From Escherichia phage Killian, in the sequence record OQ446694.1: 64,000 nt of DNA; one strand, given 5' to 3'. The position numbers and the translations under genes are program-made. Shown here in pieces: positions 33,394-56,020 of this stretch. The notes under the pieces are model-generated. The model had not been told where the DNA came from. It worked only from the letters and a program-made list of their open reading frames with translations, and searched no databases. Each line of letters opens with the position of its first letter. The stretch's first letter is position 1.

Positions 33394-34380
33394 TTATTTC
33401 AGAAGAGTAACCTCAGCAATTTCTTCCCAACCGTTTTTGTCGGTCATAATAAAGTCAGCAAGATAAAGAGCAGTACGCAGTGAAACATTGCGTAAACGAT
33501 TAACATTAACTTTCATCCATGATAATGCTTTATAAGTTTCTTCATCAGAAAGACCGCGCTTTTGCATCATGTCAGTTGAAAGAATAACATCTTCAACCCT
33601 GACCATAATTTCTTCATTAGTATGAACACCCAAATCCAAATAAACTGAGCGGGACACTAATGCTTGTAAGTGTGGAGCAAGTTTAGTACCACGGTCTAAT
33701 TCGCGGTCAATGTCAACGTTTGTGATAAAAACAATCGTTCCTTTAAATTCAAACTCACGCTCAATGCCTTTTTCTTCTAAGTAAGAAGATGCAGTGCTCC
33801 AGCAGACTTTACGGGTTTCTCCGGTGTCCAGAGCGGCTTTTAGAAGATTAAGAATGTCCATATCAGAGAAAACATCCACATCATCAATCAAAAGGACAGA
33901 ATTCTCTTCACGATTATTCCAAAGCTGTTCATAAAGACCAATACCAGAGATTTTACCATTAATGCTTTTATATTCAATGTATCCAATATCATTTGCTTTA
34001 TTTAAAGCTTTATCTAAAGAATACGTTTTACCAATACCTGCTGCGCCAGAGATAATTAATGAACGAATATTTCCATTAATAATACCGTTCGTCATCATTC
34101 CCATAACATTAAATCTTTTATTAATGCGGGTTTTCATATCTTCATATGATTCTTTAACTTCTTCAACTTTTACACCATCATATGAAATATCTGATTTGTA
34201 AACCCAAACACCGCGACGTTTACCGTCAATTTCAACAAAAACTTTACCATCTCCTTGTGCATCTACCGGAGCATTATCTGGGAACCATTCGCCTAAGAGC
34301 TCAAAAGTTCCAGAGATTTCTTTACCGAAGTAGATACCCTTATTGATAGTTACAGTTTTCATTTTATTCTCCAATTTCAC
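33394..34380 (-). CDS. P-loop NTPase (AAA-like ATPase) with N-terminal extension
   Basis: 328 aa; Walker A GAAGIGKT and Walker B VLLIDDVD. Confidence 0.6.
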   Translation of the reverse strand: MKLENKMKTVTINKGIYFGKEISGTFELLGEWFPDNAPVDAQGDGKVFVEIDGKRRGVWVYKSDISYDGVKVEEVKESYEDMKTRINKRFNVMGMMTNGIINGNIRSLIISGAAGIGKTYSLDKALNKANDIGYIEYKSINGKISGIGLYEQLWNNREENSVLLIDDVDVFSDMDILNLLKAALDTGETRKVCWSTASSYLEEKGIEREFEFKGTIVFITNVDIDRELDRGTKLAPHLQALVSRSVYLDLGVHTNEEIMVRVEDVILSTDMMQKRGLSDEETYKALSWMKVNVNRLRNVSLRTALYLADFIMTDKNGWEEIAEVTLLK

Positions 34381-34431: not shown

Positions 34432-34695
34432 TTATTTTAATGTTCGCCAAATTTTTACTGCTTCGCGACGAGATACTTCTACAGCTCCAAGTTCTACGGC
34501 TTTTTGGCGGCGGCGCGCGTGTAAGTCATAATGTTTAATGCGTTTATCTTGAAACCAAGAGCGTTTCATTCCTATTGCTTCTGCCATTTCATGAAGCTCT
34601 TCAATATCTCCATCAGTGAACATATGACAATTTTTAGTTGGATGACCGCGAAGTTTCCACCCATGATTCATTAAAACATCTACGTAAACTGTCAT
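34432..34695 (-). CDS. hypothetical small protein
   Basis: 87 aa ORF. Confidence 0.45.
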   Translation of the reverse strand: MTVYVDVLMNHGWKLRGHPTKNCHMFTDGDIEELHEMAEAIGMKRSWFQDKRIKHYDLHARRRQKAVELGAVEVSRREAVKIWRTLK

Positions 34696-34956: not shown

Positions 34957-35970
34957 TCATTTATAATAACTTCGGTGGTTTTCAAGATATACCTCTTCAA
35001 CGAACTTGTCCCAGAACTTCATGTCTACCTTATCAGGCATACCGTTCTTAGCTGCCTGGATGGCTAGGACTTCAACCAAATCAACAGTATCTTCAAGAAG
35101 TTCTTGAACTTCTTTAAATGGTAATTCACCGGCTTTAATCAGCTTAATGATAGAGGCTTCGCGCAATGGGAACGCCAAATCACCTGTTTGGTAGATTTCC
35201 ATCAATTGATACCCTGCGCGATAAGCATGACTCAGAGCTTTCCAGTCAATACCTTCATTAGCTTCAGCCTTACGAGCACGTTCACCATATTCCGCATCGA
35301 GCTTATTCAGAGATTGCTTGAGCTCGATTAAAGACAAGGTGGTTTGGTACTTACGTCCAAGAACAGTATAGAACGTTTGAGGACCTGTTTTCTCGTGGTT
35401 ATGGAATACCCATTCACAGAACTCGTTTTCAGGAAGCCGATGTTTAATATCTACAATTTTAGTACGACGTTGTCCTTGTGTTCCATCTTCTCGGTAATCA
35501 ACCCACTGGTCAGGAATTTGATTAACTACTTTCAATACATCACGTAATGCGGCCAAACGAGAACCCTTAACACCATATTTAGAAGCTTGCTTGCGGACAT
35601 ATCCTAAATAGGATTTCATGTTAGTCGTATAAAACCGTGAACGATTGTCTTGAATAAACTTCCATACATCAGGCAAATCAGATTTAACTACTAGTTCAGG
35701 TGGAGTGTGGAGCATATCCAATGCTACAGTTTCACCATCTGCTGCTAATTTAAAGAAATATTTAAGACTGTATAGTTCATGGTCAATATCATCTTTAGTG
35801 TTTTTAGATGATGTGTTGTTAGTGTTTTTACTCATATGCTCTTTAACATTTCCGATAAGAATATCGCGAGCAGGAGGAACAAAGATTTCTTTAAAATCTA
35901 CATCAGATTCTGGAGTAGAAGTTCCATAAAGATGACTACCAAAATAGCTTTTCATTACTGTTTTCATCAT
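34957..35970 (-). CDS. polymerase-beta-superfamily nucleotidyltransferase-like protein
   Basis: 337 aa; N-terminal GSHLYGTSTPESDVDF fits the G[GS]x(9-13)DhDh nucleotidyltransferase signature. Confidence 0.5.
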   Translation of the reverse strand: MMKTVMKSYFGSHLYGTSTPESDVDFKEIFVPPARDILIGNVKEHMSKNTNNTSSKNTKDDIDHELYSLKYFFKLAADGETVALDMLHTPPELVVKSDLPDVWKFIQDNRSRFYTTNMKSYLGYVRKQASKYGVKGSRLAALRDVLKVVNQIPDQWVDYREDGTQGQRRTKIVDIKHRLPENEFCEWVFHNHEKTGPQTFYTVLGRKYQTTLSLIELKQSLNKLDAEYGERARKAEANEGIDWKALSHAYRAGYQLMEIYQTGDLAFPLREASIIKLIKAGELPFKEVQELLEDTVDLVEVLAIQAAKNGMPDKVDMKFWDKFVEEVYLENHRSYYK

Positions 35971-36440
35971 TCAGCCTTATATTCAATAACAGGACATACT
36001 TTAGCTTTACGAGCTTTTAAAAATTCGACGATAATAGATTTCTTGGGTTGAATAGGAGGTAAACCTTTATACGCCCTATCAATATTTTCTACATGTAAAG
36101 CATAATCCTTTTTCCATTTATAATCTTTATATTTTTCATGCAATTGTGCAGGAATAACAAATGAACCGATAATAAGTAAAACAAGCAAAATGGCAAGTAT
36201 AAATGCTGCTGGAATAAGAGTCCATAAACTACCAAAAATAAGCCATTTCTGTATGATTTCTGCACAGATGATAGTTAGACCTGCGAGTATAGTACATCCG
36301 AAAAAAGAAACGAAAAATGTAGGAATAACAATAGACCAAAAATACGCGCATAGTGTCTTAGGCCGTTTCCATTCATCATTAAACATTTTGAATAATTTAT
36401 AGTGCCAAGAGCTTTCATTAATAATCATAATTATAATCAT
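35967..36440 (-). CDS. membrane protein (about four TM helices)
   Basis: 157 aa hydrophobic ORF. Confidence 0.5.
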   Translation of the reverse strand: MIIIMIINESSWHYKLFKMFNDEWKRPKTLCAYFWSIVIPTFFVSFFGCTILAGLTIICAEIIQKWLIFGSLWTLIPAAFILAILLVLLIIGSFVIPAQLHEKYKDYKWKKDYALHVENIDRAYKGLPPIQPKKSIIVEFLKARKAKVCPVIEYKAE

Positions 36441-42179: not shown

Positions 42180-42641
42180 TCATTGAGTTTTAATTACTGC
42201 TTTAGAAGCCTTTCCTGGTAAACGACGACTGTTAATAATTGCCATCCTACATTGAAGTGACGGGTCTTTGAACTTCGCATTAGGTTTACAAACTGTAAAT
42301 CCAAGCCAAAGATTTCCATCTGTGATTTCTAAACGTCCAGGACGGTATTCAACCCCATCAATAAAATCCTCATCAATGTCAGGCCGCGGAGGCATACTCA
42401 GGAATTCATTAACTTCTAAAACATGGTCTTTTATTTTGTGGAATAATTCAAAAACATATGTCTCATCAATCTCCCGCTGAATTGCACGATCAAGAAGATG
42501 CTGAGAATATTTTAGATGAAACGATGAGACTCCTGCTGCTTTTGATGCCTCACGAATCTCATTGTTAATTTGACGAAACTCCGACTCAAAATGACGACGG
42601 AGTTTATTTCGACGGATAAAAACTTCTGTGTTGATAGTCAT
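42180..42641 (-). CDS. regB: RegB site-specific endoribonuclease
   Basis: 153 aa, MTINTEVFIRRNKLRRHF...; T4 length and position. Confidence 0.7.
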   Translation of the reverse strand: MTINTEVFIRRNKLRRHFESEFRQINNEIREASKAAGVSSFHLKYSQHLLDRAIQREIDETYVFELFHKIKDHVLEVNEFLSMPPRPDIDEDFIDGVEYRPGRLEITDGNLWLGFTVCKPNAKFKDPSLQCRMAIINSRRLPGKASKAVIKTQ

Positions 42642-42700: not shown

Positions 42701-42979
42701 TTATTCTTTAAATCTAATCAATTTATTCATAGACTTTGAAACTTCTGCACGAACCTCATGTAAATTTTTGAGTTGCTCAAGACGCTGCGCATAGTAAGCA
42801 ATTTCATCTTCTTCGAGACAGTCCTGTGAATCTTCTTTAAGATAACGCGCATAGTCCTGGAAAGCGTTACGGACTACTTCCTGGAAGTCATCAAGACTTT
42901 GAATTTTCTTAGGAGCAACAGATACACGACGAGGGGCAGTATAATACTCATAACCAAACCCTGCGCTTAATTGAGCCAT
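42701..42979 (-). CDS. hypothetical protein (vs.3 position)
   Basis: track ORF trimmed to [13 protein letters not shown] start. Confidence 0.4.
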
Positions 42980-43245
42980 TAATATTTTTCCTCTGGTTGG
43001 AACACAGCACGACAAGCCCACATACTGGCTTCTTTGAGTTTCGTTTTAGCAATAGTTAACTGATCAAGACTTTCAGCATAATTCTTCGCGAATTCACAGT
43101 CTTCACAATTATCTAGCGCTTCCCAGAATTCATCATATAAAGCATCAAAGATAAGTCCTAAACGAACTTCAGCATCTTTGATAGCATTCACTTTACTGAT
43201 TTTATCGTCAGTATGTGGCTTATAACCTTTAATGTCTTCAATCAT
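42979..43245 (-). CDS. candidate Acb2-like cyclic-oligonucleotide sponge (vs.4 position)
   Basis: 88 aa; second ORF after regB, as T4 vs.4; assignment by position and size only. Confidence 0.4.
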
Positions 43246-43459
43246 ATTTTACTTCCTCACCTGTTCCCAAATCGTATTCAACTAAACGAATAGGTTCATG
43301 AATGCCATATCCTTGAACAGAAATTTCTGTCGTAGGATAAATTCCATTAATATCACCCATGTTCCACGCTTCATTAAATTGCTGTTCGCCTGAATTACTA
43401 AACCACTCGGCGAAAGCATTTAGCACATCTTCAGAACCTTCAATAATTATCTTTGCCAT
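43238..43459 (-). CDS. hypothetical small acidic protein (vs.5 position)
   Basis: 73 aa ORF. Confidence 0.4.
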   Translation of the reverse strand: MAKIIIEGSEDVLNAFAEWFSNSGEQQFNEAWNMGDINGIYPTTEISVQGYGIHEPIRLVEYDLGTGEEVKYD

Positions 43460-44708: not shown

Positions 44709-45260
44709 CTAAATTTGGGCCATTCCATGGCGCATGAATTTTCCATTTCTGTATTTACCCATTACCGCACTTGGGCTCGACCTTATTACAGGTTGGCGGG
44801 AATCCCTCATAGAATCATGAGGTCCAGCTTGTTCCCATGTTATTTGAATGTAAATATTTTTGCCGTAGTATTTATACCAGTGTGGCTTCATTAAAATTTT
44901 TTCATCGAGTCGTTGTTGACTCAACTTAATAGCTGATTTGCATGGGTTATAATCATTTTTCCATTCTGCTGGAATATCGCTGATGTCAGGAACTTCAGTA
45001 TCTTTTATACTAAACCCACGTTTTAAGCATTCCATTATAATGTCTGATTGACGCTTTCGCAAAAATTCTAACTTATCGTAAAAGAACGTGACATGACCAG
45101 AACCTAAAATAAACTCGGAAGATATTTTAAAATCTTTAACCCGTTTACCATTTGCCACGTGTTTACGAACTATACCAAAAACACGTGGCAATTCACGGTA
45201 TTCTGCAATTAAATGTTGGTCAGCAAGTTCAGATACTAAAGTCAAATTAATACGAGTCAT
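44709..45260 (-). CDS. denV: endonuclease V DenV (pyrimidine dimer glycosylase), apparently C-terminally extended
   Basis: N-terminal 135 aa [17 protein letters not shown]... matches recalled T4 DenV; frame continues about 45 aa past the expected stop. Confidence 0.85.
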
Positions 45261-54659: not shown

Positions 54660-54697
54660 GGGTAATAGTATCACTACCCCATCTAAAAGTAAACTTA
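54660..54697 (-). promoter_or_regulatory. T4-type early promoter (IP locus family)
   Basis: TTGATAGGGTAATAGTATCAC...GTAAAC cassette. Confidence 0.5.
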
Positions 54698-54928
54698 TTT
54701 TTTACGAAAAATTGATTTATTTTCTGCTGCCCATTTTTCAATAACTGCAACAGGACCAGTAACAACAATTTTATCACCGTAATCTTCTGCGGCGAGTTGA
54801 CCGAAATTATCTAATGCATCACGAAGAACTCCATGAGGCATTTCACCCATTTTATCTTTCTTGCCGGTGTAAATAAACTCAGCTTTTACATCAGAAGATT
54901 CAGCGATAAACTCTTTGAAAGTTTTCAT
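54695..54928 (-). CDS. internal protein-like (ipI-locus family) with capsid-targeting N-terminus
   Basis: MKTFKEFIAES start (second Met of track ORF 54695..54940). Confidence 0.55.
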   Translation of the reverse strand: MKTFKEFIAESSDVKAEFIYTGKKDKMGEMPHGVLRDALDNFGQLAAEDYGDKIVVTGPVAVIEKWAAENKSIFRKK

Positions 54929-54957
54929 TTTGATTTCCATTTGGTTTTGTTTTGATA

Positions 54958-55004: not shown

Positions 55005-55262
55005 TTATTTTAAATCTTCTAATCGTTTCTTCATCTTAGAACCATTCTTAGCGATTTCTCCTGCATCAGAGCATAATGCTAAAAGCGCTTTAACTTTAGT
55101 TTGGTCTCCTTTAAAAGATGAAGGATCGACTGCAGCAGCAAGTTCTTTAATACGAGAGAAAAGACGCTCGGCTTCAGCTAAAGCCATTCCAAGCTTTACT
55201 TCCATACCGTGGGAAGATTCAGTGATAGTAGTTTTTGTAGCAAACTCTTTGAAAGTTTTCAT
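55005..55262 (-). CDS. internal protein-like (ipI-locus family) with capsid-targeting N-terminus
   Basis: 85 aa; MKTFKEFATK N-terminus; own early promoter. Confidence 0.55.
   Translation of the reverse strand: MKTFKEFATKTTITESSHGMEVKLGMALAEAERLFSRIKELAAAVDPSSFKGDQTKVKALLALCSDAGEIAKNGSKMKKRLEDLK

Positions 55263-55334: not shown

Positions 55335-56019
<685 letters not shown>

Positions 56020-56020
<1 letters not shown>

Follow-up and report, generated by a model that had tools for sequence, protein, structure and literature searches.

Escherichia phage Killian is predicted to carry the T4 pair of anti-CBASS proteins, the sponge Vs.4/Acb2 and the nuclease 57B/Acb1

Phage T4 encodes both of the anti-CBASS proteins Acb1 and Acb2 (Cao 2023, PMC10312549). 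Acb1, the product of gene 57B, was found by activity-guided fractionation in which the cleavage of cGAMP was tracked; it bears an HxT/HxT tetrad composed of H44, T46, H113 and T115, and T4 lacking the gene (Δacb1) is sensitised to CBASS (Hobbs 2022, PMC9117128). In the same study, the homologue from Erwinia phage FBB1 was crystallised with cGAMP lying over the tetrad. Acb2, the product of T4 gene vs.4 (PDB 7UQ2; Jenson et al. 2023, Huiting et al. 2023), is a hexamer that holds three ligands; its Kd for 3'3'-cGAMP was put at about 30 nM (Jenson 2023, PMC10097602) or about 84 nM (Cao 2023, PMC10312549). The bases of the ligand are stacked by Y8 and F82, polar contacts come from H11, K23 and R79, and S74 takes part as well. 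The helix cap T12 is required, as its replacement (T12I) inactivates the protein, and the hexamer interface is made up of L29, F33, A66, A73 and A77 (PMC10097602).

The ligands of T4 Acb2 are cyclic dinucleotides; the trinucleotides cA3 and cAAG are not bound, an exclusion that has been ascribed to Y37, A57, L60, D61 and T64 together with the helix geometry (Cao 2023, PMC10312549). The related Acb2 of Pseudomonas phage PaMx33 follows the same hexameric sponge principle within the same family; however, its identity to the T4 type is only about 24%, it binds both cyclic di- and trinucleotides and it possesses a second pocket for cA3 and cAAG that the T4 type lacks (PMC10312549). Its T74 has a conserved equivalent in T68 of T4 Vs.4 (PMC10312549). 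The ligand ranges of the two T4 proteins overlap but differ: the sponge takes dinucleotides only, several of them, among which are some not cut by Acb1, whereas Acb1 also accepts cAAA and does not accept cGG (PMC9117128, PMC10312549). Carrying the sponge can also be a liability, as the defence system Panoptes fires when T4 Acb2 sequesters its decoy nucleotide, and T4 escapes by loss of acb2 (PMC12657218).

The window analysed here, a stretch of 64,000 nucleotides from Escherichia phage Killian (OQ446694.1), is a segment of a T4-like (Tequatrovirus) genome. A 2.2-kb query around vs.4 matched hundreds of T-even phages of Escherichia, Shigella and Yersinia at 95-99% identity, the closest being phage EcNP1 (98.5%), and a 25-kb query matched phage UGKSEcP2 at 97.6% identity over 93% of its length. 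Judged against the T4 RefSeq table and phage P8, the minus-strand ORFs between 41287 and 45260 follow the T4 order vs, vs.1, regB, vs.3, vs.4, vs.5, vs.6, vs.7, vs.8 and denV. With regB as landmark, the 88-aa ORF is the second on its high-coordinate side, separated from it by vs.3, and since the surrounding ORFs reproduce the T4 order, it can be assigned to the vs.4 slot, where the first-pass annotation had placed it as well.

Table 1. Position, strand and product length of the genes and ORFs of the window that are dealt with in the text.
Gene or ORF	Position	Strand	Length (aa)	Description
nrdC.10-like	33394-34380			AAA/STAND-like ATPase gene
DUF4031 protein	34432-34695	-	87	PF13223 (77.7 bits); between the nrdC.10-like gene and nrdC.11
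nrdC.11	34957-35970	-	337	Orthologue of T4 nrdC.11 (87% identical); RlaP-type Pol-beta nucleotidyltransferase
157-aa ORF	35967-36440	-	157	Hydrophobic, membrane-like; overlaps the start of nrdC.11
regB	42180-42641	-		Endoribonuclease; 152/153 residues identical to T4 RegB; positional landmark
vs.3	42701-42979	-	92	Function unknown; same position as T4 vs.3
vs.4 (acb2)	42979-43245	-	88	Acb2 family; ATG start
vs.5	43238-43459	-	73	Function unknown; PHROG 1986 (unknown function)
denV	44709-45260	-	183	138 aa in T4
81-aa ORF	54695-54940	-	81	3' of 57B, at the T4 ipI position
85-aa ORF	55005-55262	-	85	3' of 57B, at the T4 ipI position
57B (acb1)	55335-55790	-	151	2H phosphodiesterase; PF23474; PDB 7T26
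57A	55790-56020	-	76	Tail-fibre chaperone; its TAA overlaps the 57B ATG (TAATG)

Within this order, vs.4 is tightly packed between its neighbours. The TGA of vs.5 and the ATG of vs.4 overlap (ATGATTGA), as do the vs.4 stop and the vs.3 ATG (TAATG), and a Shine-Dalgarno-like sequence, GAGGAAG, precedes the vs.4 ATG inside the 3' end of vs.5. This arrangement suggests that vs.5, vs.4 and vs.3 are co-transcribed and translationally coupled. Scans for consensus promoters and terminators around vs.4 and 57B gave no excess over shuffled controls (22 sites versus 19.8±4.7, and 12 sites versus 11.4±3.3) and thus no sequence basis for assigning a transcription unit. In the T4 reference, unlike in Killian with its intact vs.5, the gene has lost 1 nt some 49 nt from its start; the frameshift leaves a product of 58 aa and a gap of 36 nt ahead of vs.4. 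As T4 Vs.4 works without an intact vs.5, it is unlikely that Vs.4 depends on vs.5 as a partner. At the far end of the same gene order, the denV ORF is longer than that of T4. Immediately ahead of where T4 has its stop codon, 7 nt are inserted, and the resulting frameshift extends the ORF by 45 codons, across the conserved spacer between denV and vs.8 and into the beginning of vs.8. The extended sequence is also present in other phages, e.g. in PBM-1 at 99.6%.

Over its full length, the 88-aa protein can be aligned with T4 Vs.4, the founding member of the Acb2/Vs.4 sponge family, which has the same length and occupies the same genomic slot, and 85 of 88 residues are identical (97%); the match to the crystallised T4 chain (PDB 7UQ2) likewise extends to 85/88 residues (E = 9e-56). 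It belongs to the Pfam family PF24729 (Acb2_Tad1_hairpin; Acb2/Tad1 hairpin domain) with 70.6 bits at a cut-off of 27, and it matches PHROG 717 (E = 3.8e-32), from which Jenson et al. gathered homologues of Vs.4 (PMC10097602). In a sequence search of the PDB, 7UQ2 was the only structure retrieved; those of PaMx33 Acb2 were not reached, consistent with its low identity to the T4 type. All residues to which a function has been assigned in the T4 protein are retained. These comprise the cyclic-dinucleotide pocket (Y8, H11, K23, S74, R79 and F82), the helix cap T12 and the predicted hexamer interface (L29, F33, A66, A73 and A77), and also the trinucleotide-blocking residues Y37, A57, L60, D61 and T64 as well as T68 are unchanged from T4. 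Because the residues ascribed to trinucleotide exclusion are the same, we predict Vs.4 of Killian to be a dinucleotide-only sponge in which, by residue identity, the second pocket of PaMx33 Acb2 would be absent. The first-pass annotation had proposed the protein as a candidate Acb2-like sponge, with T4 vs.4 given as a sponge for cyclic-oligonucleotide defence signals. Its assignment to the Acb2 family and the binding of dinucleotides are in line with our data; the wording is nevertheless too broad, as the T4 type excludes trinucleotides (PMC10312549).

The product of the partner gene, 57B, is identical to T4 57B (NP_049750) at all 151 of 151 positions (E = 2e-116) and does not differ from the T6 copy (100% identity); 498 records share at least 99% identity with it. 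Together with the value obtained for Vs.4 against 7UQ2, this E value excludes a chance origin of the two matches. The protein falls into the Pfam family PF23474 (Anti-CBASS protein Acb1) with 202.7 bits at a cut-off of 27, covering 144 of 144 profile positions, and residues 8-148 align with the FBB1 Acb1 crystal structure (7T26/7T27; E = 4e-62). H-x-[ST] occurs only twice in the sequence, as HST at 43-45 and as HIT at 112-114, so that the two motifs of 2H phosphoesterases named in the first-pass annotation are indeed there, with both catalytic histidines and both threonines kept: H43/T45 and H112/T114 correspond to H44/T46 and H113/T115 of T4. The mature sequence shows no difference from T4; only the first methionine of the T4 annotation is missing, and the numbering is offset by one residue, because 57A ends in TAA in Killian (TAATG) and in TGA in T4 (ATGATG). 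NCBIfam had no match for Vs.4, 57B, NrdC.11 or RegB, which is uninformative as this library is aimed at bacterial and archaeal proteins, and the PADLOC models gave nothing useful for the four proteins tested.

The surroundings of 57B differ from T4 in two further respects. Upstream, close to the 3' end of 57A, 12 nt are missing in frame, so that the product is four residues shorter than the 80 aa of T4. Downstream, at the position of T4 ipI, the products of two small ORFs both carry the leader MKTFKEF with an acidic residue after it; in the 85-aa product the leader is N-terminal, and in the 81-aa product it lies four residues in. We take this leader to resemble those by which T-even internal proteins are targeted to the capsid, and the two ORFs probably encode alternative injected internal proteins of the hypervariable ip locus.

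The differences between Vs.4 of Killian and that of T4 amount to three substitutions, E13D, E14D and G17S. All of them lie within residues 13-17, in the first turns of helix 1 near the H11 contact, and E13D and E14D directly follow the T12 cap, at which the exchange T12I abolishes the function of T4 Vs.4 (PMC10097602). The function of the allele might hence be changed, either by a loss of activity or by a different ligand range. This, however, appears highly improbable given what is seen among natural homologues. In an alignment of 10 Vs.4 homologues taken from Tequatrovirus, Mosigvirus, Gelderlandvirus, Pseudotevenvirus, Slopekvirus, Marfavirus and Phapecoctavirus records, the pocket residues Y8, H11, K23, S74, R79 and F82 stay the same even in homologues with as little as 54% identity, whereas positions 13 (D/E/A/K), 14 (D/E/K) and 17 (S/G/N/T/D/E) vary freely in proteins that keep all contact residues. 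The substitutions are conservative, D13-D14 occurs naturally in phages ZCKP1, pEK20 and CF-SP2, and the allele is present, exactly or with at least 99% identity, in 17 deposited phage genomes. From this conservation pattern, the D13/D14/S17 allele should behave like T4 Vs.4. A doubt may also be raised for 57B, as its PHROG family (755) is labelled 'RNA ligase', an annotation which is also found in RefSeq T4 and in many GenBank records; the protein would then be an RNA ligase or a 2H enzyme of RNA repair whose action on CBASS signals is incidental. These labels stem from fold-family transfer, though, while the identical T4 protein was purified by its cGAMP-cleaving activity, its deletion sensitises T4 to CBASS (PMC9117128), and Pfam now holds a dedicated Acb1 family for it. 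We therefore consider a primary role in RNA repair very unlikely and regard 57B as the T4-type Acb1.

It had further been suggested that the nucleotidyltransferase-like gene at 34957 stands alongside the pair. CD-NTases belong to the Pol-beta nucleotidyltransferase superfamily. NrdC.11 has the Pol-beta nucleotidyltransferase fold as well and matches PHROG 388 ('nucleotidyltransferase'), and it might thus be a third player in cyclic-nucleotide warfare, e.g. as the maker of a decoy or competitor nucleotide. Its only Pfam match, however, is RlaP (PF10127, 50.1 bits), an RNA-ligase-associated Pol-beta family of RNA repair. No CD-NTase or CBASS cyclase profile of Pfam or PADLOC was matched by this ORF: the sole hit among the PADLOC defence models was the unrelated PDC-S09, below threshold (E = 0.003, 17 residues). 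A PDB sequence search identified no solved relative. The gene is 7 kb away from vs.4 and 19 kb away from 57B. The literature on nrdC.11, judged by titles and abstracts, consists of genome-comparison, mobile-element and genome-reduction studies, and no link to cyclic-nucleotide signalling was found. A part for NrdC.11 in this conflict is very unlikely, and due to its RlaP domain and the lack of a defence-model match above threshold we rejected the gene as a member of the anti-CBASS pair; the suggested association is unsupported. The preferred reading accordingly comprises Vs.4 and 57B.

Both flanks of nrdC.11 depart from T4. The gene for the DUF4031 protein stands where T4 has a short gap only, and the hydrophobic ORF at the other end takes the place of the T4 homing endonuclease mobD.

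Beyond the pocket residues, the alignment of the 10 homologues reveals an uneven distribution of change along Vs.4. Residues 1-32 and 66-88 are nearly invariant across the genera; residues 33-65 are hypervariable and contain indels. The latter segment includes the positions lining the second (trinucleotide) pocket of PaMx33 Acb2, and the ligand range of Vs.4 homologues may therefore differ among T-even relatives.

What we observe for Vs.4 and 57B is orthology, a conserved gene position and the retention of every published functional residue. On these grounds, Killian almost certainly carries the anti-CBASS pair of T4, a Vs.4/Acb2 sponge and a 57B/Acb1 nuclease. We infer the activity of Acb1 from experiments on an identical protein and that of Acb2 from experiments on a protein that is 97% identical. 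By analogy, Vs.4 would be expected to assemble as a hexamer that traps three cyclic dinucleotides, 3'3'-cGAMP and related molecules, in pockets between two subunits. In the predicted pocket, Y8 and F82 would stack the bases and H11, K23, S74 and R79 would touch the ligand. Sequestration of this kind would keep CBASS effectors from their signal, and 57B, as a metal-independent 2H phosphodiesterase, would cleave cyclic oligonucleotide signals.

The first-pass annotation had spoken of two independent countermeasures to cyclic-nucleotide signalling defence. This is correct and describes a known trait of the lineage, since the T4 pair is published (PMC10312549), over 1,200 phage records contain a homologue of vs.4 and over 1,200 a homologue of 57B, and the names 'anti-CBASS protein 2' and 'anti-CBASS protein Acb1' are already in use for orthologues in some GenBank records. 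Both genes are near-identical to those of characterised T4 proteins, and the pair implies no new biology. Most deposited relatives label vs.4 as 'hypothetical protein' and 57B as 'RNA ligase'; the ORFs should read acb2 (vs.4) and acb1 (57B).

With both genes, a phage would be expected to withstand many of the CBASS systems whose signal is 3'3'-cGAMP, cUA or cAAA. There is also a very slim chance that the D13/D14/S17 allele, which is found in a minority of Tequatroviruses, is shifted in its ligand preference or affinity. If true, it might for example bind Panoptes decoy nucleotides such as 2',3'-c-di-AMP more weakly while 3'3'-cGAMP binding is kept, and the shift would represent a natural step toward escape from defences that sense the sponge. 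For the T4-like pair, the carriage of acb2 would be expected to render the phage vulnerable to Panoptes-type systems.
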